Virus record (IMG/VR): IMGVR_UViG_3300044630_000786
Coordinates: 1-52,445 of that record
Length of the DNA: 52,445 bases
Strand: one strand, 5' to 3'
DNA from: a virus
Taxonomy: Duplodnaviria > Caudoviricetes
Shown here: piece by piece, positions 1,000-33,834 of the stretch
How the letters are laid out: each line of letters opens with the position of its first letter
Numbering within the stretch: the stretch's first letter is position 1
Made by a program: the position numbers and the translations under genes
The notes under the pieces: generated by a model
Told to the model about the DNA's origin: nothing
Seen by the model: only the letters and a program-made list of their open reading frames with translations
Database searches by the model: none

Positions 1000-2487
1000 T
1001 CAATATAAAGCAAGTTTATTTTCTATGTATTCTTTTGCAATTGGCATAATTAAATCAGTCTCTTTATCAATATCTTTTCTTGTTATTTTTGATTTTCTAA
1101 GTGATTGAATTGAAGTTCCACAAAAAGATGATGCACCCCAAAGATCCCAAGAATCTAAAAACGAACCATTGTAATCGCCACTGTTTATATTAGACCATTG
1201 AGTTGCAGTATCACGATTTCCATATTCATTTTTCCATTCTAAACTATATGGATATGCGCCTGATGAATTTTCTATATCAATCATCGATTCCTTTATTTCT
1301 TCATACCCATACTTAGTAAAGTCTTCACCCATAGCAGAAAGTTTAATTGTTCCATCTTGATTGGAGATCTTTTTTGTTATTGTTAATGGATAAAACACCC
1401 AGTGCTGATCCATCCAATTTTCTTTAAACCATTTAACACTATCGTTTAAAGAATCATAAGATTCTCTAGGCAATCCTGCAATCATAGAAATAGTTGATGC
1501 GTATAAACCAAGTTCTTTATTAAACAACTTTCTCATATCTAATGCTGTTTGTTTATTCTTATCTGGATGCAATCCTTTTCCAATTATCTTTCCGCTCTCA
1601 TGATTAAAAGTTTCTACGCCATAGTAATGACCCCAGACACGAGATTCTAATAATAGTTCTCTCTGTTCTACGTTACTATGAAGTAAATCTAATCTAACAA
1701 ATCCAGTAAAGTTTGGTTTGAACGATAATCGTTTTACAGCTAAAGAAAGTTTCTTTAGTTTCTCATCGTTACTATTAATCGTTTCATCTGCGATTGCGTA
1801 ATTGGTAATACCCCATTTATCATAGTTAGTTTGTAACTCACGATAAATGTCTTCTTCAGATCTAGATGTATCACCCTTTACTCCAAGGATTGGATATGAA
1901 CAATATTTACAATTAAATTTACAACCACGTTCTAATTCAATTGTTAATACATCAGTTGGGCAAAGAAAATCTCGGTCTTCATATTCTATTGAATAAGATC
2001 CATCAACAGTTTCTGGAGGATATGCAGGATACATATGTAATGCATTAATTAACCATCCTCTATTCAGAGGAATGCCTTTTAACTTACCATCAGAGAATGC
2101 ATGTTTTAAAACATCAACAACAGCAAGTTCTCCGTAACCATTAATAAAATAATCTGCGTCAAGATCTTTATAATAAATGTCTTGTCCACCCAATACAATT
2201 TTTATCTCTGGGTATTTTGTTCTTAGTAAAGATATTAAACTTCTATATGCGTTATACTGTGTCAACCACGTTATAGAAATCCCCACCCACTTGATATTAT
2301 TTTTAATGATCCGTGAATTTATAAGTTGGATTATCTGTGATTCTTCCCAGAAAGGAAGGCGATCTATTACCTCAACATCAATAGATAATGTTTTTCTTAA
2401 ATGGTGTGCTATTCTATATGCACCAGATGGTCTCTCCGCAGAATATTCCCAACCGAGAGAAGTAAAGATTAATCCATTTGCGATCAC
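1000..2487 (-). CDS. B12-binding-domain radical SAM enzyme
   Basis: CxxxCxxC (RGCKFNCKYC), N-terminal Rossmann-like B12 region (IVLGG, GYGE), DET, GVETF and MIAGLP motifs. Confidence 0.85.
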   Translation of the reverse strand: MIANGLIFTSLGWEYSAERPSGAYRIAHHLRKTLSIDVEVIDRLPFWEESQIIQLINSRIIKNNIKWVGISITWLTQYNAYRSLISLLRTKYPEIKIVLGGQDIYYKDLDADYFINGYGELAVVDVLKHAFSDGKLKGIPLNRGWLINALHMYPAYPPETVDGSYSIEYEDRDFLCPTDVLTIELERGCKFNCKYCSYPILGVKGDTSRSEEDIYRELQTNYDKWGITNYAIADETINSNDEKLKKLSLAVKRLSFKPNFTGFVRLDLLHSNVEQRELLLESRVWGHYYGVETFNHESGKIIGKGLHPDKNKQTALDMRKLFNKELGLYASTISMIAGLPRESYDSLNDSVKWFKENWMDQHWVFYPLTITKKISNQDGTIKLSAMGEDFTKYGYEEIKESMIDIENSSGAYPYSLEWKNEYGNRDTATQWSNINSGDYNGSFLDSWDLWGASSFCGTSIQSLRKSKITRKDIDKETDLIMPIAKEYIENKLALY

Positions 2488-2499
2488 TGGTCACCCAAA

Positions 2500-2820
2500 A
2501 ATAAAATGCCGACTGATTGGGTGATAAGGACAGTCGGCGAAACCTCAGCTATGCTTTAAGCAGCGATAGCAAATAACTCGTCGTTTGCGGTTATTGATTT
2601 TGCTTGATTTACGGTCATCGCCTACCGTGTTGCCGTCTCTACTATCTCACGCTGTCGAAACCTAGTCACCCCCATCATAAGAATACGAATAGAATTAAAA
2701 CTATAATAGCAAAGCCAATTATAAATCTTGTCAAGTCATCATCCATATCAATCTCCTTATGGTGGAGGTGGGGAGAATCGAACTCCCGTCCAACATGCCT
2801 TCGTTTCGAAGGGATTACAA
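2500..2820 (-). ncRNA. ssrA: Circularly permuted two-piece tmRNA (acceptor piece ~2820-2760; coding piece 2673-~2500; tag ANDELFAIAA at 2588-2556)
   Basis: 3' end GGACGGGAGTTCGATTCTCCCCACCTCCACCA lies upstream of 5' end GGGGGTGACTAGGTTTCGAC; acceptor stem has G3.U70; resume codon GCA; terminal hairpin GCCGACTG/CAGTCGGC plus U-run. Confidence 0.92.
2675..2746 (-). CDS. 23-aa hydrophobic peptide MDDDLTRFIIGFAIIVLILFVFL inside the tmRNA intervening segment
   Basis: AAGGAG RBS 6 nt before ATG; fills the spacer between CCA end and 5' GGGGG. Confidence 0.6.
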   Translation of the reverse strand: MDDDLTRFIIGFAIIVLILFVFL

Positions 2821-2825
2821 CAATA

Positions 2826-3332
2826 TTAACTATTTAGGACTTTAGCGATACTGTTCATAACAGCAGCAATGCGACCGATGTCACGTAGTTGCTCAACAGT
2901 ATAACCCATTTTCTTTAGTCCATCATAATGCGCTTTAACACAGAAGTGACAATTACCAACAATAGAAGCAGCAAGTGAGTATGACTCAAATCGTTCTTTA
3001 GTAGTACCACCGTGCGTTGCGATTGCGTTCATGCGAAGTTGAGCAGGTAGACCAGCAAGAGCAGGGTCTTCTGCCATTTCAACGTAAGGATACCATACGT
3101 TATTTTGTGCCATTAAACTGGCAGCAGTCATCGCTGCATTTGCATCTACTGGCGCATCTGCTAAGAGAGCACCCAATAGTTTACCGTTACCAGTCGCAGC
3201 TAACGCAGCAACAGCACAGCCGATTGCTTCATCAGGATCTAGAGTGCTGCGCAAAAGCACAGCATCTAAATTTAACTTTGCGTCTTTTGCGTATTCTGGT
3301 AAAACATCTTTAACAGAATCAATAAAAGCCAT
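2826..3332 (-). CDS. ahpD: Alkylhydroperoxidase AhpD (CMD family)
   Basis: SLAASIVGNCHFCVKAH CxxC motif, MAQNNVWY; adjacent to ahpC. Confidence 0.9.
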   Translation of the reverse strand: MAFIDSVKDVLPEYAKDAKLNLDAVLLRSTLDPDEAIGCAVAALAATGNGKLLGALLADAPVDANAAMTAASLMAQNNVWYPYVEMAEDPALAGLPAQLRMNAIATHGGTTKERFESYSLAASIVGNCHFCVKAHYDGLKKMGYTVEQLRDIGRIAAVMNSIAKVLNS

Positions 3333-4635: not shown

Positions 4636-5478
4636 TTATCCTAACATTTTCTTAATAGTCGCTGGACCAACAATACCATCAGCTGTCAAACCATTGGCTG
4701 CTTGCCATGCCTTAACTGCTTTCTCTGTTCCTGGACCAAAATCACCATCAGCAGTTAAGCCAAGTTTCTCTTGGATCAATTTAACTGTAGCGTTCTTGCT
4801 TCCAATCTTACATAGTTCTAAGACAACTTCAGTAACTGAATCGTCAGCTGGCGCAGGTGCATGTCCACCACCAAGAACTGCTTTGTTGTGTTTGTAGTGA
4901 TTAGTGCGATCCTCAAGACCAATAGTACCACCATTGATACGCTTAGTCATTAGAACGATATCGTCTTTATCACAGATCTCGTTTAGACCATTTGTCTTCC
5001 AGAACCAGCAAGCAGATTCAATAGCACCATCAAGTGTTTCTAGGTATGCAATGGTTTCATCAATAGACTTACCGATTGCTGCTGCGAATCTAGTGTAGTT
5101 GTCTTTACCAGTCAACTGAATAGCGCCACGTCCACGGAATTTAAAACCTTCGCCTGATGCTTCATCACCATTACCCATGCGACTTGCGTATACACGGTTG
5201 GCAATCATCTCTGGCTTACGTTCATATTTTAACGCAGTAGCTTCGTCTGGGAAATACTTCTTAAATGTTCCCATCAAACCCTTTGCGCCATAATTCAAGT
5301 TCTCTTTTAATGTAGTAAAGTCCATTGACTCGTGACCACACTGAGCAAGAAAACCTGCTAAACGGTTTGTTGTATTGATTTGATATTTGTCAAGCACTTT
5401 GTTAAGAGCAGCAGCAAGATCTGCTGGCGCTTTATTGTTCTTACAAGTTTGCTTAATCAGGTCGGCTGTTACTTGCAT
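4636..5478 (-). CDS. GH19 endolysin with C-terminal peptidoglycan-binding domain
   Basis: FLAQCGHES, FRGRGAIQLTG, TKRINGG; ADGDFGPGT and ADGIVGPAT PG-binding repeats. Confidence 0.9.
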   Translation of the reverse strand: MQVTADLIKQTCKNNKAPADLAAALNKVLDKYQINTTNRLAGFLAQCGHESMDFTTLKENLNYGAKGLMGTFKKYFPDEATALKYERKPEMIANRVYASRMGNGDEASGEGFKFRGRGAIQLTGKDNYTRFAAAIGKSIDETIAYLETLDGAIESACWFWKTNGLNEICDKDDIVLMTKRINGGTIGLEDRTNHYKHNKAVLGGGHAPAPADDSVTEVVLELCKIGSKNATVKLIQEKLGLTADGDFGPGTEKAVKAWQAANGLTADGIVGPATIKKMLG

Positions 5479-25481: not shown

Positions 25482-26071
25482 TCCTTGAATATCTCTACAG
25501 CTTCATCCCACTGTAAAAATGGAACAACCGTATTATCATCTATATGGTCTGGTACTTCGCTTTGTTTGACCATGACAAGAGAAATACATATTCTTGCTTC
25601 ATTAGTCATGTTGACTACGTTATGTGGCTTACCCACATTGACTAATGATGGTGTTGCTATTTCGTGCTCATAAACCATAGTAGTATAGTCTGGTAGCCAG
25701 TTGCGATATAAACCACCAGCATTACCACGTATCTGCGAATCTTCTTCCTTAGCATCAAACCAACACATTTTATTGTATCCTGTGCCAATACAGTAGGAAA
25801 AGTTCATCTTAGTAGCATTATCAAATACATCGTGCTGGTCAATATGTATGTGCATTACATATTGTGGTGGCTGTATAAAAATATCATAGTATGGAATGTG
25901 TATACCCCTCTCCTTAAACCACTGTAGTAAATGTGGATTTAAGCCAGAGGGAGGTAGGTCGGTATGATGCCATGTTGACCTAACAGTTTTGTCAGGTCGT
26001 GGTAAAGCATCAAATTGTTCTTTTGATGCTAGAGGATAATCCCATGGAATTTTTAGGTCGGTTGCGTACAA
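25451..26071 (-). CDS. Cupin/2OG-Fe(II)-like protein, paralogue 4
   Basis: IHID...KMNF...LVNVGKPH...R. Confidence 0.6.
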   Translation of the reverse strand: MYATDLKIPWDYPLASKEQFDALPRPDKTVRSTWHHTDLPPSGLNPHLLQWFKERGIHIPYYDIFIQPPQYVMHIHIDQHDVFDNATKMNFSYCIGTGYNKMCWFDAKEEDSQIRGNAGGLYRNWLPDYTTMVYEHEIATPSLVNVGKPHNVVNMTNEARICISLVMVKQSEVPDHIDDNTVVPFLQWDEAVEIFKDCICQDTTSI

Positions 26072-26673
26072 AGTATTTCCTTCGCACCATCAAACGTCAT
26101 ACCATTTACTGCAGGAAGAATTTTACTGCTTTCATCTATACCAATAGTAAATAGTTTTGCTCTTGCTTCGCTGGTTACTTTTAGTGTGTGAGGTATACCA
26201 GCATTCACCAAAACAGCTTCACCTGCTTGTATAATTTCTGATCCAGCAACTTTTAGAACATCTGGGTTTACTACCCATCCTGTTGGTGGATCATTCCATT
26301 TAGATTCTTCATAGTCGCCTGGATTTACTAACAAGTTATCTTGATTTTCTACACCTAATGGTTCAACAATATCATACCATGTATATTCGACAGGAACATC
26401 ATATACCCAAATTAACTTTGCGTGGTTATCTATCTCGCACCATGGTGCATCAACAAATAATGGTGGGGATTTTTGTGAGAATACAGTTAGCATGTTGCAG
26501 CTGATTGGCTTTAGACCAGCTGTATCTAACCATTGTAAAACATCGTTAGAGAGATGATGTCTCAATAATTTTATAGAATTATATTCATCTCCGAACTTGT
26601 CCCAGTCAACTTTCGATGACCAAGGATTGAATGATGGGAGATTTAGTTTCAGTAACATATAGTACCTTTTCAA
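26053..26673 (-). CDS. Cupin-like protein, paralogue 5 (first metal His replaced by Phe)
   Basis: LFVD...AKLIW...LVNAGIPH. Confidence 0.55.
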   Translation of the reverse strand: MKRYYMLLKLNLPSFNPWSSKVDWDKFGDEYNSIKLLRHHLSNDVLQWLDTAGLKPISCNMLTVFSQKSPPLFVDAPWCEIDNHAKLIWVYDVPVEYTWYDIVEPLGVENQDNLLVNPGDYEESKWNDPPTGWVVNPDVLKVAGSEIIQAGEAVLVNAGIPHTLKVTSEARAKLFTIGIDESSKILPAVNGMTFDGAKEILCTQPT

Positions 26674-26693
26674 TTGATAGTATATGTATTTAG

Positions 26694-26768
26694 TGGCACG
26701 GCATGGAGGAATCGAACCACCATTCTGAGTTTAGAAGACTCATGTCCTATCCGTTGAACGAATGCCGT
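26694..26768 (-). tRNA. tRNA-Arg(TCT)
   Basis: Cloverleaf, loop CT-TCT-AA, encoded CCA. Confidence 0.92.
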
Positions 26769-26773
26769 ATTAT

Positions 26774-26856
26774 TGGTGCCCCAAGAGAGACTCGAACTCT
26801 CACGCACTAGGCACTGGCTTCTAAGACCAGCGTGTCTACCATTCCACCATCGGGGC
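26774..26856 (-). tRNA. tRNA-Leu(TAG)
   Basis: Cloverleaf with variable arm, CCA. Confidence 0.95.
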
Positions 26857-26857
26857 A

Positions 26858-26989
26858 TTATCTAGTAATTTTTCGTAGCAACTTATACCAGTAATATTTG
26901 AAACCTCTAACAATCTCGAAGTCAAAGTGTAGGTTCACCTCTCTAGGTATAGAACCATATACTTTATCGAGTGTATCTTTAGGTTTCAT
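26858..26989 (-). CDS. 43-aa hypothetical protein
   Basis: MKPKDTLDKVYGSIPREV... immediately follows the rpsU stop. Confidence 0.45.
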   Translation of the reverse strand: MKPKDTLDKVYGSIPREVNLHFDFEIVRGFKYYWYKLLRKITR

Positions 26990-27253
26990 CTAATACATTT
27001 TCTTTTGTAGTTTCTGTGAAGATAATTTCTTTAACCATCTTTTCCTAGCAGAGTTCTTTGCGATTTTTCTTTTCACTGATGGTTTGACATACTCTTGTCG
27101 TTCTTTTACTTCTTGAAGCAACTTAGCATTTTCTACCTTGCGCTTCAACTGTCGTAACGCTTTTTCTATATTACCATCACATTCAACAGCCAATCCAAAT
27201 TTCTTTTCTCTCTTAGGTTTTCTGGTTTTTATCAAATTATCTCCCTTTCGCAA
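26990..27253 (-). CDS. rpsU: Ribosomal protein bS21 (start uncertain)
   Basis: NIEKALRQLKRKV...EVKERQEYVKPSVKRK...ARKR. Confidence 0.88.
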   Translation of the reverse strand: MRKGDNLIKTRKPKREKKFGLAVECDGNIEKALRQLKRKVENAKLLQEVKERQEYVKPSVKRKIAKNSARKRWLKKLSSQKLQKKMY

Positions 27254-27276
27254 TTTATAGTTAAACTTTTATTTAT

Positions 27277-27351
27277 TGGTGGTGACAATAGGATTTGAAC
27301 CTATGACCTGTTCCGTATGAAGGAAATGCACTACCACTGTGCTATGTCACC
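27277..27351 (-). tRNA. tRNA-Met/Ile2(CAT)
   Basis: Loop TT-CAT-AC, G1-C72. Confidence 0.88.
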
Positions 27352-27353
27352 AA

Positions 27354-27427
27354 TGGAGCGGAATATCGGAATCGAACCGATGACTGAAGTTTGGAAGACT
27401 GCCGTTTTACCATTAAACTAATCCCGC
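27354..27427 (-). tRNA. tRNA-Gly(TCC)
   Basis: Cloverleaf, U73, CCA. Confidence 0.92.
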
Positions 27428-27436
27428 AATGTCATT

Positions 27437-27465
27437 ATTATACAGTAGAAATATCTTAAAGTAAA
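27437..27465 (-). promoter_or_regulatory. Internal promoter in tRNA array
   Basis: TTTACT-N17-TATAAT. Confidence 0.7.
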
Positions 27466-27479
27466 GTATTTCCAATATT

Positions 27480-27554
27480 TGGTGGACCGTGGGAGAGTCG
27501 AACTCCCTACTCCTGCGTGCAAAGCAGGTGTGTTCCCAATTATACCAACAGCCC
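27480..27554 (-). tRNA. tRNA-Ala(TGC)
   Basis: G3.U70, CCA. Confidence 0.93.
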
Positions 27555-27560
27555 AAAATT

Positions 27561-27635
27561 TGGTGCTCGGTGAGAGGGTTGAACTCCCGACCTCTTCCTT
27601 GTAAGGGAAGCACTCTACCACTGAGTTAACCGAGC
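27561..27635 (-). tRNA. tRNA-Val(TAC)
   Basis: Canonical cloverleaf. Confidence 0.95.
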
Positions 27636-27641
27636 ATGATG

Positions 27642-27715
27642 TGGTAGGGGTACTAGGTAATGCTCCTAGTTTTACTGGTTAAAAGCCAGTTACTTCACTT
27701 TAAAGTTTTACCCCC
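27642..27715 (-). tRNA. tRNA-Lys(TTT), non-canonical D and T loops
   Basis: Intact acceptor, anticodon and T stems and CCA; T-loop AGCATTA; D-loop lacks GG. Confidence 0.75.
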
Positions 27716-27716
27716 A

Positions 27717-27794
27717 TGGTCTCGGTGGTAGGATTCGAACCTACGACCCTCTGCTCCCAAAGCAGATGCGCTAACCAGACTGCGCTACACCGAG
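27717..27794 (-). tRNA. tRNA-Pro(TGG)
   Basis: Canonical. Confidence 0.95.
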
Positions 27795-28058
27795 TTAATC
27801 TAATACTGCGACAATATCTTCTTGCTTGATGATAACACGCTGAGAACCATCAATGGTAACTACAGCAGCTTTCGCCCACTCAAGCATAATCTTATCGCCA
27901 ACTTTTACTTCAGTAACCAATGGACCAATTGCTAACACGGTACCAGTTTTTGATTCTCCTAGACCTTGCGCACTTTCGATAACAATGCCAGAAGCTGTTG
28001 TGTTCTCACGTTTATTTTCTGCAACTAATACTTTGTCTTTCAATGGTACTACATTCAT
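27795..28058 (-). CDS. groES: Co-chaperonin GroES (Cpn10)
   Basis: PLKDKVLV, TASGIVI, GTVLAIGP, VKVGD, EDIVAV. Confidence 0.9.
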   Translation of the reverse strand: MNVVPLKDKVLVAENKRENTTASGIVIESAQGLGESKTGTVLAIGPLVTEVKVGDKIMLEWAKAAVVTIDGSQRVIIKQEDIVAVLD

Positions 28059-28088
28059 TAGGTATACCTCTCTCGTCATTAAAAATTA

Positions 28089-28162
28089 TGGTGCCCCTAC
28101 ACAGAATCGAACTGCAAATTACGGATTACAAAACCGTCGTTATACCATTTAACTATAAGGGC
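28089..28162 (-). tRNA. tRNA-Thr(TGT)
   Basis: Canonical. Confidence 0.93.
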
Positions 28163-28168
28163 GCAAAA

Positions 28169-28577
28169 CATTTTTGAGAGTACTGTTATGTGTTTAGTTG
28201 GCAGCTTTAAATACCTGCCACCAGATCCTCAAGCATTTCAATCTATGTTGGGTTATCATAGATTCTCTCCGAATAAAGGACGCTGTTTTGACTGGCGATT
28301 ATCTTCCCTAACAGTTGGGATGCCCATTCTTTTGCTCACACTCTCAAAAATGCTTCCTGTCCGTCGTGGTAATTATAGTACATCAAGAGCCGAGAATCCC
28401 CAACCCCATCACGCATACCCTCCACCCACTCGCCACGGACAGAACTCTCGTGTCGCCAACGCTGGTTAGGTAGACCCATGATTTTACTCATGCCCTATTC
28501 AAAGGGAGAACCATCCTACTGATCGCCAATCAGTTTCTCTCATGCGGATCACATTAGCAGTGGTTAGCTGCGGGTCT
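28169..28577 (-). ncRNA. Unidentified multi-domain structured RNA
   Basis: 13-bp closing stem 28169-28181/28340-28352, further stem-closed domains 28357-28442 and 28472-28577, many internal hairpins; no convincing ORF. Confidence 0.6.
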
Positions 28578-28653
28578 TGGCTCCGAAGGGTGGGATCGAA
28601 CCACCGACACGATGATTAACAGTCATCTGCAACTACCTCTGTGCTACTTCGGA
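28578..28653 (-). tRNA. tRNA-Asn(GTT)
   Basis: Canonical. Confidence 0.93.
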
Positions 28654-28659
28654 ATATCT

Positions 28660-28735
28660 TGGTAGCGGGAGCAGGAATCGAACCTACCTCATTCAAGCGT
28701 ATGAAACTTGCTAGTTCCCAGAACTATATCCCGCA
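28660..28735 (-). tRNA. tRNA-Met(CAT), initiator-like
   Basis: 1:72 mismatch, GCGGG acceptor; lacks the three G-C anticodon-stem pairs. Confidence 0.8.
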
Positions 28736-28742
28736 ATCAATC

Positions 28743-28817
28743 TGGCGGTCTCAAGGGGTAACGATCCCCTTCTTTATGCGTGACAGGCATATGTGCGTCC
28801 ATGAACACTTTGAGACC
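28743..28817 (-). tRNA. tRNA-Asp(GTC)
   Basis: G73; atypical T-loop ATCGTTA. Confidence 0.88.
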
Positions 28818-28823
28818 AAAATT

Positions 28824-28908
28824 TGGTGGAGAATACTGGGATCGAACCAGTCGTACCCGAAGGTGGCGGATTTACAGTCCACTGCATCACCATTGATGCT
28901 TCTTCTCC
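28824..28908 (-). tRNA. tRNA-Tyr(GTA)
   Basis: Variable arm, CCA. Confidence 0.93.
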
Positions 28909-28909
28909 A

Positions 28910-29033
28910 TGGTATTAGTTTTGCTGACGCACTGTTTGCTATGACTCATATGCTTTACTCGAGTTTACATCTTATCGTCATAGTTAGTCAGGCATGATCA
29001 AACCCATCGCTTACATCAGCAAAACTAATACCA
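28910..29033 (-). ncRNA. Unidentified 124-nt RNA closed by a perfect 18-bp stem
   Basis: TGGTATTAGTTTTGCTGA/TCAGCAAAACTAATACCA; inner CTATGAC/GTCATAG stem. Confidence 0.6.
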
Positions 29034-29034
29034 C

Positions 29035-29278
29035 ATTTAATTGCACTGGGATGTTCAGCAACAATCCACTCTGGGCTAACCACGTAGTCGTCCTACGACT
29101 GGTCGCTTCTCACATTACAGTCCAAGTTGTTCCAGCGTGACCACCGTATCCGCATCAACATTCTACCTAGTAGAACTCCACTTCGTTTCCATCTTTCCTG
29201 ACACATGACGCACCCACACTCGGCAGTGCAGCTAATGCTCATACATCCTACTGGCTTGGTAACCCAATGCAATTAAAT
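29035..29278 (-). ncRNA. Unidentified ~245-nt RNA closed by a 16-bp stem
   Basis: ATTTAATTGCATTGGG/CCCAGTGCAATTAAAT with a G.U pair only on minus strand; internal hairpins. Confidence 0.6.
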
Positions 29279-29279
29279 C

Positions 29280-29355
29280 TGGTACACGGTACGGGAATCG
29301 AACCCGTCTTCCTAACGTGAAAGGCTAGTGTCCTAAACCGATAGACGAACCGTGC
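29280..29355 (-). tRNA. tRNA-Glu(TTC)
   Basis: Canonical. Confidence 0.93.
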
Positions 29356-29410
29356 ATTGTTGGTTGTTTCAAACGTCTCCCGACGTGACGGACAACCATA
29401 ACCGTATTCA

Positions 29411-29424
29411 ATTTTTAAAGAACA
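29411..29424 (-). promoter_or_regulatory. boxA-like antitermination site
   Basis: TGTTCTTTAAAAAT vs rrn boxA TGCTCTTTAACA, in a tRNA operon leader. Confidence 0.55.
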
Positions 29425-29541
29425 ATAGAACTAACAAGGTGCTGACTGTTACATGGTGCCGAAGTCATTACCACACCAAAACCTTGTCAAACTCTTCTCA
29501 GAGCCAGATCGTTCACTTCTGTTTATCAACTCAATATAGTA

Positions 29542-29606
29542 ATTATACACCAACTTCTAATTAAAGTAAAGCACTTTCTTTGGAAGCCCCTACTATCAGT
29601 AGGGTT
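29542..29606 (-). promoter_or_regulatory. Early promoter with upstream stem-loop
   Basis: TTTACT-N17-TATAAT; CCCTACT/AGTAGGG palindrome. Confidence 0.75.
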
Positions 29607-29607
29607 A

Positions 29608-29683
29608 TGGAGTGGGTGACAGGACTCGAACCTGCATTGAACTGATTTGCAATCAGCTACCTAACCATTCAGTGCACACCCAC
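29608..29683 (-). tRNA. tRNA-Cys(GCA)
   Basis: U73, CCA. Confidence 0.92.
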
Positions 29684-30235
29684 ATAATCTCTTACTCTAC
29701 TGTTCTTAGGAACACCACTCATCAAATATTCCATTTGGTCAGTCAGAATATTTCTGTTAGACAAAATCATATTCTCATAGTGATTTGGTTCGTAAGGAAC
29801 ATACAACAACTTCATGTTGATATCCTCAAGCAACCTACGTCCCTTTTTCATGTTACAAGGTTTGCATGCAGTAACTACGTTAGTCCACGCATCCTTACCA
29901 CCTTCGCAACGTGGTATCACATGGTCTCGTGATAGATGACTAACTGAAAAATTGTTACCGCAGTAAGCACACAAATGTCTGTCTCTAGAAAAAAGAGTTT
30001 TGTTTGTCAACGCAACTCTACCAAATTTGTCAAGAGACGATGTACCTCGAACAGCAATTATAGAAGGAACCTCGATGCGAGATTCAATACCATCATTGTT
30101 GATACCACCACGGAAGATTTTCAATGTTTCACCTAGCGACCAGATTACCATCTCTTTTGCTTGATAACTTACCGCATCTTCAAAGTTTATCCACTTGCGA
30201 GGTAAACCTGCTGCGTCTAGTGCTAGAACATTCAT
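29669..30235 (-). CDS. HNH endonuclease (McrA-like)
   Basis: RDRHLCAYCG, DHVIP, W.NVVTACKPCN; true start MNVLALD after AAGG RBS. Confidence 0.88.
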   Translation of the reverse strand: MNVLALDAAGLPRKWINFEDAVSYQAKEMVIWSLGETLKIFRGGINNDGIESRIEVPSIIAVRGTSSLDKFGRVALTNKTLFSRDRHLCAYCGNNFSVSHLSRDHVIPRCEGGKDAWTNVVTACKPCNMKKGRRLLEDINMKLLYVPYEPNHYENMILSNRNILTDQMEYLMSGVPKNSRVRDYVGVH

Positions 30236-30252
30236 TTTCTTTCCTTTCTTAT

Positions 30253-30336
30253 TGGTACGAGGAGCGGGACTCGAACCCGCACGACTTTCGTCGGGAGATT
30301 TTAAGTCTCCTGTGTCTACCATTCCACCATCCTCGC
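30253..30336 (-). tRNA. tRNA-Leu(TAA)
   Basis: Canonical with variable arm. Confidence 0.95.
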
Positions 30337-30344
30337 ATACTTTA

Positions 30345-30373
30345 ATTTTACCCTTACACCTATTTAATGTCAA
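30345..30373 (-). promoter_or_regulatory. Internal sigma70 promoter
   Basis: TTGACA-N17-TAAAAT. Confidence 0.65.
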
Positions 30374-30384
30374 GTAAAATTTAT

Positions 30385-30462
30385 TGGTACCCCTACTCCG
30401 ATTCGAACGGAGAGAACTGCTCCTTTTGAGAGAGCCGACTTTACCAATTTGTCCATAGGGGC
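30385..30462 (-). tRNA. tRNA-Leu(CAA) with short variable loop
   Basis: Loop CT-CAA-AA, Leu-type D arm, A73. Confidence 0.8.
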
Positions 30463-30472
30463 ATCAAACCTT

Positions 30473-30567
30473 TGGTACTCCCGACAGGATTCGAACCTGT
30501 ATCATCCCCTCATCTAGAGGCATCGCCGAGGTATAAGCTCGGAGTTTTACCATTAAACTACAGGAGC
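30473..30567 (-). tRNA. tRNA-Ile(TAT) with long variable arm
   Basis: CCGAG-CT-TAT-AC-CTCGG; ~25-nt variable region. Confidence 0.8.
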
Positions 30568-30570
30568 AAC

Positions 30571-30662
30571 TGGCAGAAGGTATGGGATTCGAACCCATGA
30601 GCCATCTTTCAATGACTGACAGTTTAGCAAACTGCTGATTTAAGCCACTCATCCAACCTTCT
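30571..30662 (-). tRNA. tRNA-Ser(GCT)
   Basis: Long variable arm, G73. Confidence 0.93.
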
Positions 30663-30668
30663 AAACTA

Positions 30669-30743
30669 TGGAGCAGAGTATCGGATTCGAACCGATGACA
30701 TTTTCGTTGGCAACGAAACATTCTACCACTGAATTAACCCTGC
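30669..30743 (-). tRNA. tRNA-Gly(GCC)
   Basis: Canonical. Confidence 0.94.
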
Positions 30744-30749
30744 ATAATT

Positions 30750-30843
30750 TGGCGGAGAGCAGAGGAGTCGAACCCCATCCGATTTTAGTCAGAACCCAGT
30801 TTTCAAGGCTGGTCGGCGCACCAACGCACCTGCATTACTCTCC
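30750..30843 (-). tRNA. tRNA-Ser(TGA), probable 8/4 fold
   Basis: 8-bp acceptor, 4-bp T stem, 6-bp D stem with 4-nt loop, G73. Confidence 0.75.
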
Positions 30844-30849
30844 ATAACT

Positions 30850-30924
30850 TGGCACCCCATGATGGAATCGAACCACCATCCCGACGTTCGTAGCATCGTA
30901 TCCTATCCATTGAACGAATGGGGT
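30850..30924 (-). tRNA. tRNA-Arg(ACG)
   Basis: Canonical. Confidence 0.93.
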
Positions 30925-30932
30925 AATATTCT

Positions 30933-31007
30933 TGGTACCTATGGGTGGGAACGATCCACCGACCCTCGCCTTATCAAGACGATGCTCTACCACTGAGCTA
31001 CATAGGT
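30933..31007 (-). tRNA. tRNA-Ile(GAT)
   Basis: Cloverleaf; T-loop ATCGTTC. Confidence 0.9.
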
Positions 31008-31009
31008 AT

Positions 31010-31085
31010 TGGTGCAAGCGACAGGAATCGAACCTGTTTCCGAAGCTCTTCAGGCATCTGCTATGACCACATCAGCTACACTTGC
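31010..31085 (-). tRNA. tRNA-Phe(GAA)
   Basis: Loop CT-GAA-GA; one anticodon-stem mismatch. Confidence 0.88.
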
Positions 31086-31094
31086 ATTAACACT

Positions 31095-31168
31095 TGGCAT
31101 CCCGAGAGGGATTTGAACCCCCACTTACAGTTTTGGAGACTGCAGTGCTGCCGTTACACTATCGAGAT
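31095..31168 (-). tRNA. tRNA-Trp(CCA)
   Basis: Canonical, G73. Confidence 0.92.
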
Positions 31169-31180
31169 ATAAAATTTCTT

Positions 31181-31254
31181 TGGGGTGACTAGTGGGAGTT
31201 GAACCCACACGAAGAGAATCACAATCTCTGATGCTACCATTACATCATAGTCAC
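31181..31254 (-). tRNA. tRNA-His(GTG)
   Basis: C73; base at -1 is T rather than G. Confidence 0.9.
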
Positions 31255-31268
31255 ACCAAAGAAATCTT

Positions 31269-31342
31269 TGGCAGAGGGTACAAGAATCGAACTTGTGCTA
31301 CTTGAGTCAAAGTCAAGTGTGCTACCGCTACACCAACCCCCA
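31269..31342 (-). tRNA. tRNA-Gln(TTG)
   Basis: First tRNA of the array; G73, CCA. Confidence 0.92.
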
Positions 31343-31358
31343 ACATGTTTAACTATAA

Positions 31359-31372
31359 ATTTTTAATGAACG
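31359..31372 (-). promoter_or_regulatory. boxA-like site
   Basis: CGTTCATTAAAAAT between attenuator and first tRNA. Confidence 0.45.
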
Positions 31373-31388
31373 AATGGGACGATGCCCT

Positions 31389-31427
31389 AAAACAAAAAAC
31401 CCTCTAACTTTTCAGGTAGAGGGTTTT
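31389..31427 (-). terminator. Intrinsic terminator of the tRNA-operon leader (attenuator)
   Basis: AAAACCCTCTA/TAGAGGGTTTT 11-bp stem followed by TTGTTTT. Confidence 0.85.
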
Positions 31428-31469
31428 GGTAAATAGACCTTGTAGTCTTACATCTGCTTACCAAAACCC
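31421..31469 (-). promoter_or_regulatory. Antiterminator hairpin overlapping the terminator 5' arm
   Basis: Perfect 12-bp GGGTTTTGGTAA (31469-31458)/TTACCAAAACCC (31432-31421). Confidence 0.8.
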
Positions 31470-31573
31470 CCAGAATCATTCTCAATCGCATATCCAAATG
31501 TTGGACGTGAGCATGACCAGCCACTTAGTAGTGGGAGATGCTGTTTCGTCAACGATATGGATTGTCTTAACAT
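31448..31573 (-). CDS. Putative 41-aa leader peptide MLRQSISLTKQHLPLLSGWSCSRPTFGYAIENDSGGFGKQM
   Basis: ATG at predicted +1 (6 nt after TATAAT); ends inside the antiterminator; 34 distinct codons. Confidence 0.7.
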   Translation of the reverse strand: MLRQSISLTKQHLPLLSGWSCSRPTFGYAIENDSGGFGKQM

Positions 31574-31579
31574 AAAAGA

Positions 31580-31608
31580 ATTATACACCTTTTCTGAATT
31601 ATTGGCAA
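31580..31608 (-). promoter_or_regulatory. Promoter of the tRNA operon
   Basis: TTGCCA-N17-TATAAT. Confidence 0.8.
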
Positions 31609-31630
31609 GCAATTTTCTTGCTTACCTTTT

Positions 31631-31638
31631 TATTTATA
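31631..31638 (-). promoter_or_regulatory. Late promoter TATAAATA
   Basis: Exact consensus upstream of the tRNA leader. Confidence 0.6.
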
Positions 31639-31649
31639 ACAAAAATTCA

Positions 31650-32408
31650 TCACTTTCGTAGTTCTGCTAAATTATTTTTCTCAAGCCACTCAATCACAGT
31701 AGCAGTGGGATCTGACCCACACACTGTAAACCTATAAGCACCTGGAAAACTGTGATGGTAACTATGATAGTTCTCACCAAAATTTAGCCAACTCATCTTA
31801 GGTAAGTCCACTATTTTACCTCGACTTTCGCCATAATGGCAAACTGCATTTGCAACACCGAAGGCATGAAAAGCGAACACACCAGCAACACCAATCACGA
31901 ATAAACCAATTATACCACAAACCAAATAAAATGTCAACCAGATTGCAAGAGTTAACCAAAGATAATTCTTGTGGAAGAACTGCAATTCTTTGTTAACGAT
32001 AATATCTCGACACCCAGCGATGTCAATCTTCTTCTCGTCAAGCTGCCACAGATGACAGTAGCTTCTTAGGAAACCAATCTGCCATGGACTATGAGGATCT
32101 CCCTCTTGGTCCAAGTTCTTGTGATGCATTCTATGCACTATCGCCCAACCAAGTGGAGTGCCAATCAAACTGAATAGAGAAAAGAACAACAACCCTTTCC
32201 TTAGCCAAGCATGTTTGATTGTGAAAGTTCTATGCGCAATAGATCGATGTAGGAAACCTGTGACAGCAAACCCACCAAGCATGATAATAGGGATAGCAAA
32301 CAAGATTGCGATCCATTCACCACTCATTATCATCATAATCACAAAGATATGACAAAGAATGCTGAGTGTCGTTCTTGCTACTAACATTGCTTCACTTCGA
32401 TATTGCAT
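31650..32408 (-). CDS. Membrane fatty acid desaturase (delta-9-like)
   Basis: His boxes HRSIAH, HRMHH, HSYHH; DPHSP; TM segments. Confidence 0.88.
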   Translation of the reverse strand: MQYRSEAMLVARTTLSILCHIFVIMMIMSGEWIAILFAIPIIMLGGFAVTGFLHRSIAHRTFTIKHAWLRKGLLFFSLFSLIGTPLGWAIVHRMHHKNLDQEGDPHSPWQIGFLRSYCHLWQLDEKKIDIAGCRDIIVNKELQFFHKNYLWLTLAIWLTFYLVCGIIGLFVIGVAGVFAFHAFGVANAVCHYGESRGKIVDLPKMSWLNFGENYHSYHHSFPGAYRFTVCGSDPTATVIEWLEKNNLAELRK

Positions 32409-32836
32409 TTTTCTAAAAACTCCAATCCATCATTGTCACGATAAGTGTTGCGGTAATAGAAGGTATTTATACCAGCACCATAAATGATTTTAGCGCATTG
32501 TATGCAAGGTGCGTGAGTACAAAACATGGTAGCACCAGCTGCTCGTTCACCATCACGTGCAAGTTTCGAAATAGCATTTGCTTCAGCATGAATAACCTCG
32601 TCTTTCGTTTTCAACTCTTTAGTAAAATGTTCATAGTTATATCTTGGATCACTTGGATTGACATTAACTATATGTTCGCATTCATTTGACCATCCAGCTG
32701 GCATACCATTGTAGCCAATAGAGATGATACGGTTGTCTTTCACCACTACTGCACCAACTTTTAGACGGATCGCAGAACTCAATTCAGCAAACCTCTCAGC
32801 TGTGTCCATGAAGGCACTAATCCATTTCTGTTTCAT
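32381..32836 (-). CDS. dCMP deaminase
   Basis: GYNG, HAEANA, PCIQC. Confidence 0.92.
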   Translation of the reverse strand: MKQKWISAFMDTAERFAELSSAIRLKVGAVVVKDNRIISIGYNGMPAGWSNECEHIVNVNPSDPRYNYEHFTKELKTKDEVIHAEANAISKLARDGERAAGATMFCTHAPCIQCAKIIYGAGINTFYYRNTYRDNDGLEFLEKCNIEVKQC

Positions 32837-33834
32837 CGCAAGTATACCTGTACGCTTTCAAGTTGTTTAACCAAATCATTACTCACAGCAAACTTAACTG
32901 GTAGTGAATGTTTCTCGTTTTCAAAAATTACAAGGGCAGGTTGGTTGTATGTAGTTTTGAAGTTTGGTAGAAACCTGTTACTTCTATACTCACCAGCATT
33001 CACAAACTGATACATCCTTGTGTCCTCTAGATACTGTTCGTGTAAGAAAACATCTTGACCACGAACCTTACCAATAACCACGATCTTTGGATTCCTTGGC
33101 ATAGTCATGTCAACATCGAGATTAAAACAATCTACGCTTGAACGAATATACATTCCAAAGCAAACCATCATGTTGTCTTGCAACTGTATTGGATCAGGTT
33201 TTGTTGCTTCCCAACCAATCGCACCTAAAATTGGACTCACACCAAACAGATAAGTTGACAACCCACCAGCAAGACTTTCTCTAGTATTAGAAGTAGTCTT
33301 ACCCTTCTCGTTAATAGTAGAAGTAAACAACTTCATATCAGACAACCACTTCTGTTGCCAACTGAGTTCTATGTTTGTTGAAATTATCGTTTCTTCTCTT
33401 CCGATTTTAGTTTGTGGGTTTGCTATGTTAGCATGGATTGCTTTACCCACATCATCCAATCTTTGAACGACACGTTCACGTTTTTCATATTCCTCAAAGC
33501 CAATATTAAATGGGGTAGTAGTTCGCTTCTGAGTATTATTCTTAGGAACAACATCAGCAACAATCGTTACCTCATAACCCATTGCGGTAGATCTATGTTC
33601 AATAATACTGTAAGATTTAATCACACCACCATTGTACTGGTCAATCTTTTCCTCAACTCTACCATTTCTGGCATTAGATTCAGCAATGATGAAGGTGCTT
33701 GCTCCCTTTTCTAGCGCAGATGTTTTTGCGTTCTCGAGGGCAGCATGGTAATTCGCACCATACCCTGTTACCTTAACTTCACCAGCAAAAACTGATGAGC
33801 AAACAAACAGTAAAGCAAGCAAACTCTTTTTCAT
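32833..33834 (-). CDS. Exported hypothetical protein
   Basis: Signal peptide MKKSLLALLF; VTGYG...ALENAK..ALE N-terminal domain. Confidence 0.7.
   Translation of the reverse strand: MKKSLLALLFVCSSVFAGEVKVTGYGANYHAALENAKTSALEKGASTFIIAESNARNGRVEEKIDQYNGGVIKSYSIIEHRSTAMGYEVTIVADVVPKNNTQKRTTTPFNIGFEEYEKRERVVQRLDDVGKAIHANIANPQTKIGREETIISTNIELSWQQKWLSDMKLFTSTINEKGKTTSNTRESLAGGLSTYLFGVSPILGAIGWEATKPDPIQLQDNMMVCFGMYIRSSVDCFNLDVDMTMPRNPKIVVIGKVRGQDVFLHEQYLEDTRMYQFVNAGEYRSNRFLPNFKTTYNQPALVIFENEKHSLPVKFAVSNDLVKQLESVQVYLR

Follow-up and report, generated by a model that had tools for sequence, protein, structure and literature searches.

We analysed a stretch of 52,445 nucleotides (nt), referred to as the window, from a virus of the Caudoviricetes (Duplodnaviria); it spans positions 1 to 52,445 of IMG/VR record IMGVR_UViG_3300044630_000786. 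The window carries an array of tRNA genes on its minus strand, and at the head of that array, next to a desaturase-like gene, lies the short leader locus that is the subject of this study. The original prediction, made from the DNA letters of the window, was that this locus encodes a leader peptide that samples the tRNA pool and gates the array by transcription attenuation. In order of transcription, its parts are:

31608..31580, minus strand: sigma-70-type promoter, TTGCCA-17-TATAAT, matching the consensus at 11/12 positions
31573..31448, minus strand: leader open reading frame (ORF), 41 sense codons and TAA, peptide MLRQSISLTKQHLPLLSGWSCSRPTFGYAIENDSGGFGKQM
31469-31458, minus strand: 5' arm of the putative antiterminator, GGGTTTTGGTAA, within codons 35-39 (G G F G K)
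31432-31421, minus strand: 3' arm of the putative antiterminator, TTACCAAAACCC, a perfect 12-bp complement of GGGTTTTGGTAA
31427..31389, minus strand: intrinsic terminator, stem AAAACCCTCTA (31427-31417) / TAGAGGGTTTT (31406-31396)
31342..31269, minus strand: tRNA-Gln, the first gene of the array (found with ARAGORN), starting 105 nt past the leader stop

The gap between the -10 box and the ATG at 31573 is 6 nt. The terminator has a 10-nt loop and is followed directly 3' of its stem by TTGTTTT, and its 5' strand has AAAACCC in common with the antiterminator 3' arm, so the two helices overlap. The leader peptide contains 19 of the 20 amino acids, Val being the missing one, and its 41 codons include 34 distinct ones, with no repeat among codons 1-15. 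The original prediction had described this arrangement and this composition. The promoter, the ATG 6 nt past the -10 box and the 41-codon ORF were all found on the minus strand as claimed, the 12-bp antiterminator overlapping a U-tailed terminator ahead of tRNA-Gln was confirmed from the sequence, and a recount of codons and amino acids gave the same figures.

Relatives were reached through the desaturase-like neighbour gene, which led to two loci with the same module, and through a 22-mer of the window, which led to two more; a peptide alignment search followed. This search found 40 loci in IMG/VR viral contigs and 45 in metagenome contigs, two sets that overlap. Pooled with the window they gave 83 complete ORFs, of which 44 are distinct as DNA and 40 as peptides; three copies are truncated at contig ends. 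One copy from a metagenome contig, L047, has lost the leader stop, and its frame runs to 65 codons through the antiterminator loop; this could reflect an error of sequencing or a constitutive mutation in nature. Peptide statistics were calculated on 39 distinct peptides, omitting L047. A protein database provided 24 more distinct full-length peptides, once gene-caller extensions had been trimmed to the Met 8-16 residues before the LP motif and four entries with an unresolved N-terminus had been set aside.

Each of the seven viral records searched, including one of 131 kb, carries a single copy of the module, and the runs containing module DNA are listed as lake or freshwater metagenomes. A blastn search of the 511-bp region against GenBank phages gave no match, and tblastn with two family peptides (neither of them the window's own) against 50,697 GenBank phage records gave only chance matches at E ~1, to integrases and a tail fibre. 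By these GenBank searches, no cultured relative carries the leader module. A scan of prokaryote genomes returned a single spurious match, in a metagenome-assembled genome and without an ATG. On the sequences collected, the module is conserved in a clade of uncultured freshwater phages.

The start signals are held across this clade. A sigma-70-type promoter matching the consensus at at least 9/12 positions, with a 17-nt spacer, is present in 54 of 57 distinct upstream sequences, and the distance from the end of the -10 box to the ATG is 6-7 nt, also in 54 of 57. This spacing places the predicted transcript start at the start codon, which would make the messenger RNA (mRNA) leaderless. The exception is a lineage (L012 and L013) in which the promoter lies ~60 nt upstream and a Shine-Dalgarno-like AAGGA stands ~10 nt before the ATG, as expected if translation matters. 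The original prediction had proposed looking for a conserved ORF position in relatives, and this is what we found: the ORF keeps an invariant place at the head of the tRNA array, and across homologues its insertions and deletions comprise whole codons only. The frame is open in all complete copies, and the codons for the invariant Leu, Pro, Gly and Arg have changed synonymously. Variation at the three codon positions (0.20/0.16/0.26) has a weak periodicity. We infer from these comparisons that a short ORF between the promoter and the tRNA genes is translated.

The same evidence bears on the proposal that the locus is a non-coding small RNA of ~180 nt, running from a strong promoter to the terminator and open in one frame by accident. 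Such an RNA would have the promoter-to-terminator anatomy seen here, it would fit the weak codon-position periodicity, and the 3' part is indeed conserved at the nucleotide level. An accidental frame would not be expected to stay open in every complete copy, to change by whole codons, to end at a stop tied to the antiterminator arm (see below) or to acquire AAGGA where the leaderless start has gone. In addition, Rfam gave no match in 31389-31608 at E<=1 (and in 26000-33000 only tRNA-type and chance matches), and the amino-acid completeness described next is a property of translation. We consider a non-coding RNA highly improbable.

All 20 amino acids are present in 27 of the 39 peptides, and the other 12 have 19, with Val absent in nine and Trp, Asp and Arg absent in one each. 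The protein-database peptides behave in the same way (20 of the 24 with all 20 amino acids, four with 19), so that in total 47 of 63 distinct peptides, of 37-47 residues, are complete, 16 have 19 amino acids and none falls below 19. As background, only 0.99% (84/8525) of 41-residue windows of this phage's proteins contain all 20, and among the 75 ATG-initiated ORFs of 37-47 codons in the window, the leader alone has at least 19.

This composition is held more tightly than the sequence. Median pairwise identity of the peptides is 0.50, and the ratio of non-synonymous to synonymous substitution rates (dN/dS) has a median of 0.62 over 78 pairs, being below 1 in 69 of them. When half of the positions of a complete peptide were redrawn from the family composition, the probability of retaining all 20 amino acids was 0.03 and that of retaining at least 19 was 0.17. 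At an identity of 0.50, completeness is thus not simple inheritance. Shuffling residues within alignment columns gave 18.33 +/- 0.13 distinct amino acids per peptide, compared with 19.69 observed, a value reached in none of 3000 shuffles; the outcome was unchanged for representatives below 85% (n=16), 70% (n=11) or 60% identity (n=6).

Completeness exceeds the column shuffles because residues present in single copy relocate between positions. Cys is found at GWxC in some lineages, and in the N-terminal part or in LPC where the core reads GWNS, GWDR or GWxN. Tyr is placed by lineage in GYA, SYE, IEYD or QYT; His and Gln exchange around K(H/Q)LP or shift to SCH or SQF; Asp has shifted to GWD where END has become ENH; and Val is found at many sites. 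Trp, Asp, Tyr, Cys and His each make up ~2.4% of family residues, which is one per peptide. It appears from these patterns that selection keeps the amino-acid inventory of the peptide, about one of each, and not its sequence.

A sequence-specific arrest peptide would be expected to evolve differently. TnaC and SecM are arrest peptides that stall the ribosome in response to a specific ligand or factor, and a conserved core in the leader could similarly stall on one ligand or factor, with the stall controlling the terminator. The invariant residues L, P, G, W and R, which are conserved as amino acids, fit this idea. The distance from Trp to the stop varies, from ~19 to 26 residues, the remainder of the peptide evolves fast and completeness is left unexplained, all of which makes an arrest peptide very unlikely.

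The original prediction had emphasised codons rather than amino acids, calling the leader 'pan-codon', and had proposed a comparison with codon-usage-matched random 41-mers. These have 26.9 +/- 2.2 distinct codons, so the window's 34 is above expectation (P = 0.0014 for at least 34), and a count of 34 is not attained in any of 871 real gene windows of 41 codons. With uniform codon usage, P for at least 34 is 0.047, and with the window peptide held fixed P is 0.015 (phage usage) or 0.11 (uniform). Across the family, synonymous resampling with the peptide fixed gave P<0.05 in 7 of 27 ORFs under phage usage and in none of 27 under uniform usage. With the peptide held fixed, most homologues thus have no more distinct codons than expected, and we rejected 'pan-codon' as the primary property; with no consistent synonymous excess, the high codon count seems mostly a by-product of amino-acid completeness. 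The expectation that codon diversity would persist despite peptide divergence was therefore correct for completeness, which is kept, but not for synonymous diversity, which is not consistently high.

There is one respect in which codon choice may matter. We examined five split codon boxes as ten classes (Leu UUR/CUN, Arg AGR/CGN, Ser AGY/UCN, Ile AUA/AUY and Gly GGY/GGR), and 32 of 39 ORFs use all ten. ATA is present in 39 of 39 ORFs, although it makes up 14% of phage Ile codons. For a single ORF the split-box use has P ~0.04-0.1, and the members are related. Retention of both halves of split boxes is suggestive of sampling by tRNA class.

The putative RNA switch is the second feature considered. 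An antiterminator duplex can be formed in 39 of 39 distinct homologues, with free energies from -12.7 to -22.5 kcal/mol, and in all 39 the leader stop falls between -5 and +7 nt from the last paired base of the 5' arm. The arms change together: the lengths of the T run in one and the A run in the other match in 35 of 39 (TTTT:AAAA becoming TTT:AAA or TT:AA), and paired changes of GGT:ACC to GGA:TCC and of TTT:AAA to TTC:GAA are found. In a cis/trans comparison a sequence's own 3' arm was better than those of its relatives by a mean of 2.7 kcal/mol in 30 of 32 haplotypes, a result matched by none of 5000 permutations. On this comparison the antiterminator arms appear to co-evolve. The terminator is also conserved as a structure, with 91.7% of alignment cells paired across 26 sequences, three pairs with changes on both sides and a covariation score that none of 500 shuffles reached. 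The original prediction had pointed to covarying hairpins in relatives as a check, and both helices agree with it, the terminator by covariation and the antiterminator arms by fitting their own partner best.

A mid-ORF hairpin is present in all sequences, but it is weak (median z -0.8, with 8 of 39 below -2) and could not be distinguished from shuffles, so it is at best a doubtful candidate for a pause or for a helix of the 1:2 type known from attenuators. We found no convincing 1:2-type helix, and no mid-ORF hairpin pairs with the 5' arm in the folds. Untranslated RNA should therefore read through.

The genes that this switch would control are tRNA genes throughout the family. Considering distinct loci with at least 200 nt of 3' sequence (n=52), the next gene is a tRNA on the same strand in all 52, Gln(ttg) in 50, Leu in one and Arg in one, and the relatives' arrays include up to 22 tRNAs inside the fetched flanks. 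The window array has 27 tRNAs, with all 20 amino acids represented. ARAGORN identified 24 of these and, at a relaxed threshold, Tyr(gta) and Ser(tga) in addition; Lys(ttt) was an Rfam tRNA match with the anticodon read by eye. As originally predicted, 26 of the 27 have a codon in the leader, Val(tac) being the sole exception. In 31 of the 52 loci, the spacer of ~50 nt between terminator and tRNA has no promoter-like site above 8/12; the window is one of these, its 51-nt spacer having a top match of merely 8/12. With no promoter intervening, the leader promoter in these loci would reach the first tRNA block solely by read-through of the terminator.

This arrangement helps to assess the suggestion that the leader ORF is a separate gene for a phage microprotein made early, equipped with a promoter and terminator of its own, in which case the arm pairing would be incidental or serve mRNA stability and the array would be fed by leaky termination or other promoters. 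The promoter, ORF and terminator do form a self-contained unit, a promoter-like site of at least 9/12 lies past the terminator in 21 of 52 loci, and the LP..GW..R core is conserved with synonymous changes. For a folded or binding peptide, a composition of all 20 amino acids maintained by relocation is unexpected, as is a dN/dS of ~0.62, and the Pfam and PHROGs libraries gave no family for four peptides at E<=1 in each. Nor does a microprotein account for arms that co-evolve, for a position always at the array head or for the 31 of 52 loci with no other driver for the first tRNAs. It seems a quite unlikely explanation.

Within the window array the first block of genes is well delimited:

30385..31342, minus strand: first tRNA block, Gln, His, Trp, Phe, Ile, Arg, Ser(tga), Gly, Ser(gct), Ile(tat), Leu(caa)

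The next promoter-like site (30373..30345) lies beyond its last gene, and internal promoter-like sites in the array end at 30345, 29542 and 27437. Ahead of tRNA-Glu (29440-29570, minus strand) a promoter-like TTTACT-17-TATAAT is followed by ~190 nt with no ATG at the predicted start, and the stretch past the 29542 site holds a segment, gttctttaaaaatt, that resembles the spacer before tRNA-Gln. Internal tRNA blocks thus seem to use a different, ORF-less lead-in. Among the ORFs listed for 26600-30400 there is no short one homologous to the leader, and a profile search of the window did not turn up another copy. Two further genes of the array deserve mention. The tRNA-Lys(ttt)-like gene (27645-27715, minus strand) has an odd D-arm, scores 43 bits with Rfam and is missed by ARAGORN even at the relaxed threshold; a counterpart lies at ~5168-5243 in the related locus L002. 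An HNH-endonuclease-like ORF (30234..29669, minus strand), with Cys/His motifs read from the translation, lies between tRNA-Leu(taa) and tRNA-Cys and is possibly a homing endonuclease.

Sequence comparison supports the parts of the locus and their synteny with the tRNA array, conservation of the frame, selection for completeness and co-evolution of the arms. We propose ribosome-mediated transcription attenuation at this locus, with a leader that would sample every aminoacyl-tRNA and control the tRNA set of the phage, a reading to which we give a probability of roughly 0.6. The attenuator part of the original prediction is thus retained, its ORF, arms, terminator and array position being supported by relatives, and its 'pan-codon' part is not.

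The proposed mechanism is as follows. Host RNA polymerase would start on the A of the ATG, giving a leaderless mRNA for a test peptide of ~40 codons. The last codons of the ORF would also form the 5' arm of the antiterminator, and the 3' arm of that helix would take the first bases of the terminator stem. A leading ribosome that kept pace with the polymerase would reach the end of the ORF and cover the 5' arm, so that the terminator folds and transcription stops ~50 nt before tRNA-Gln. If the ribosome were delayed upstream, or the RNA were not translated, the antiterminator would form first and polymerase would enter the tRNA genes. A perfect 12/12 promoter (TTGACA-17-TATAAT with an upstream TG) lies at 31909-31937 on the minus strand, inside the desaturase-like ORF; its transcripts would enter the leader with an internal ATG and no Shine-Dalgarno sequence, and transcripts of this kind from upstream promoters would be predicted to read through.

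As the leader has about one codon per amino acid and both split-box classes, a shortage of any single charged tRNA should raise transcription of the tRNA set. The result would be a demand-driven feedback, in which slow decoding raises tRNA supply and restored decoding shuts it off. Candidate triggers would be starvation, host shut-off or loss of host tRNA, and a tRNA-cleaving defence. That ribosome position decides termination, as well as the direction of the response and its natural trigger, is what we infer from the arrangement of the parts. More specifically, the leaderless one-codon-per-amino-acid ORF may act as a sensor of global decoding capacity, in which any charged-tRNA shortage switches on the phage's complete tRNA set and accumulating phage tRNAs switch it off; for this fuller version we see an even chance.

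For such a sensor to work, the informative codons must lie where a stalled ribosome leaves the 5' arm free. In 37 of 39 peptides (read from the tabulated values) every amino acid present has a codon that begins ahead of the arm's first paired base, the exceptions being Val in L044 and L048; what the arm itself encodes (G-F-G-K or similar) is redundant. If the ribosome is allowed a reach of 8 nt ahead of the first base of the A site, the Asp codon marks the exact end of the free zone in 30 of 39 sequences. The ribosome's entry-site helicase lies 8 nt ahead of the A site.

A number of points weigh against our interpretation. The 8-nt limit was picked after seeing the data, so the agreement is one of compatibility and not a test; with a conventional reach of 13 nt, the arm-covering zone takes in Asp in 37 of 39 sequences and, in some, Glu, Tyr, Phe, Asn or Val, residues that would be sensed only under the 8-nt limit. 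Val is missing from 10 of 63 peptides although a tRNA-Val is encoded, and peptide-level conservation of the LP..GW..R core is stronger than completeness would demand. The tests were made on related sequences and retain some shared ancestry. Amino-acid starvation would stall the ribosome too, yet extra tRNA would be no help, and the mechanism presupposes a host able to translate leaderless mRNA.

The RNA structures carry their own difficulties. In a MAFFT alignment the antiterminator has a single pair changed on both sides, a weak covariation that we attribute to misaligned co-deletions in the T and A runs; per-sequence duplexes and the cis/trans comparison were used instead. The RNAalifold consensus structure is the terminator only, and the antiterminator sequesters just 3-5 bases of the terminator's G+C core. 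Among the folds listed, free RNA adopts either the full antiterminator or a shortened hairpin with the terminator, and the two are nearly iso-energetic, which suggests that kinetics would decide the switch. Folding with the ribosome footprint masked gives the proposed outcomes, necessarily so by construction.

Two sets of data from outside the switch also count here. A promoter of at least 10/12 lies between the terminator and the first tRNA in 10 of 52 loci, with a 9/12 site in 11 more, and gating is thus not obligatory. The original prediction had cautioned that internal promoters could restrict direct control to mainly the first 11 tRNAs; that caveat holds and is extended by these ten relatives with a strong promoter. 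Two RNA runs contain short contigs only, none of which reveals a start, an end or a level of read-through: one covers the promoter and the first 29 nt of the ORF, another ends at 31574, and an RNA contig from one relative joins 31402 to 31576, with a 26-nt side.

Several of these observations would be accommodated if the same attenuator were a general checkpoint on translation or ribosome availability, sensing ribosome speed only, with the composition of all 20 amino acids not a sensed variable. The slowdown could come from ribosome shortage, limited capacity for leaderless initiation, toxins or antibiotics. The geometry gives read-through on any delay or with no translation, the start is leaderless, Asp and some other residues are too near the arm for sensing with a 13-nt footprint, and codon diversity is unremarkable once the peptide is fixed. 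A sensor of speed alone leaves unexplained why completeness persists through ~50% divergence with relocating single residues and why both halves of split boxes are retained. We regard it as unlikely, with a small but real chance of being right, and favour a leader that samples every aminoacyl-tRNA.

Two small hairpins flank the module:

31604..31626, minus strand: hairpin GGTAAGCAA-GAAAA-TTGCTTGCC, just 3' of the desaturase-like gene, its 3' arm overlapping the -35 box
31376..31387, minus strand: spacer hairpin GGG-CATCGT-CCC, between the terminator and tRNA-Gln

At the site of the first, relatives have a hairpin of the CCCTAC...GTAGGG type. Hairpins of this CCCTAC-loop-GTAGGG type, without a U-tract, recur just upstream of the clade's early-type promoters. 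In the relatives they stand ~20-40 nt before the -35 box; the window has one at 29598-29617 (minus strand), and the -35 box of its leader overlaps a different hairpin. The spacer hairpin has a counterpart ~10 nt past the terminator in relatives (L010, L014, L017 and others) that reads AGC-CATCGT-GCT, with the loop invariant and the stem covarying. It could be a processing or pause signal.

The window is a ~30% complete fragment of a large phage with a deoxycytidine monophosphate (dCMP) deaminase, a DNA ligase that is ~40% identical to cultured-phage ligases, and an ATPase. The gene just upstream of the leader (31650-32408, minus strand) encodes a 252-residue membrane protein with HxxxH / HxxHH histidine boxes; two relatives encode this desaturase-like protein at 73-74% identity, and a protein with a fatty-acid desaturase domain from Pelagibacter phage Mosig matches it weakly (32% identity). 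The phage also encodes a transfer-messenger RNA (2465-2852, minus strand; ARAGORN) with the tag peptide ANDELFAIAA. With ribosome rescue, a complete tRNA set and a stall-sensing leader, the phage may manage host translation broadly.

To our knowledge, little has been learned about the timing and control of tRNA array expression in phages. Recent work links phage tRNAs to escape from tRNA-targeting defences (PMC10264068, PMC11555353). The proposed demand sensor, if real, would explain how a phage can afford many tRNA genes, which it would call on only as decoding begins to fail. It would also extend attenuation from a biosynthetic sensor of one amino acid to a sensor of every amino acid that controls tRNA genes, and would be an unusual case of selection on a peptide's amino-acid inventory instead of its sequence. 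The model is directly testable in a reconstituted transcription-translation system, and the leader module could serve as a compact reporter of translational stress.

The closest known systems are the leader-peptide attenuators of enterobacteria (trp, his, leu, thr, pheA and ilvGMEDA), in which the leader repeats codons of 1-3 amino acids and biosynthetic genes are controlled. The phage module resembles them in its short leader, its mutually exclusive helices, the deciding role proposed for a ribosome near the leader end and the predicted read-through on slow decoding. It differs in having no run of repeated codons, which is the defining feature of those systems, each amino acid being present about once, in having tRNA genes as its target and in its leaderless mRNA. 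The enterobacterial attenuators also have a 1:2 helix that gives termination without translation, whereas untranslated RNA of the phage module should, unlike that of trp, read through.

Leaderless short ORFs have been described in mycobacteria, where polycysteine ORFs are reported to be cysteine-responsive attenuators of cellular operons (bioRxiv 10.1101/834739). In both cases the transcript opens with a short leaderless ORF that acts, or in the phage would act, as an attenuator of the genes behind it; the mycobacterial ORFs have Cys runs and answer to one amino acid, whereas the phage leader has all 20, precedes tRNA genes and would act through an intrinsic-terminator switch. The phage peptides have at most 1-2 Cys, never consecutive.

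Stalling leaders of the erm, cat, bmrB, vmlR and toiL type answer ribosome-targeting drugs through nascent-peptide contexts and control resistance genes. In both these and the proposed phage system, any stalling of the ribosome within a short leader ORF refolds the RNA beyond it and turns on the gene that follows, but in the phage leader it is composition that appears selected, not an arrest motif. The T-box riboswitch binds one specific uncharged tRNA directly, without translation. It too couples tRNA charging to the choice between antiterminator and terminator; the phage module shows neither T-box features nor a match in Rfam, and its reading of all tRNAs would go through the ribosome. Searches of the full-text literature within reach (subscription journals and supplements were not) found no paper on a leader with all amino acids or on an attenuator before phage tRNA genes. 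Set beside these systems, the phage locus is best read as a variant form of leader-peptide attenuation, in which a leaderless ORF complete for all amino acids would gate a phage tRNA array.

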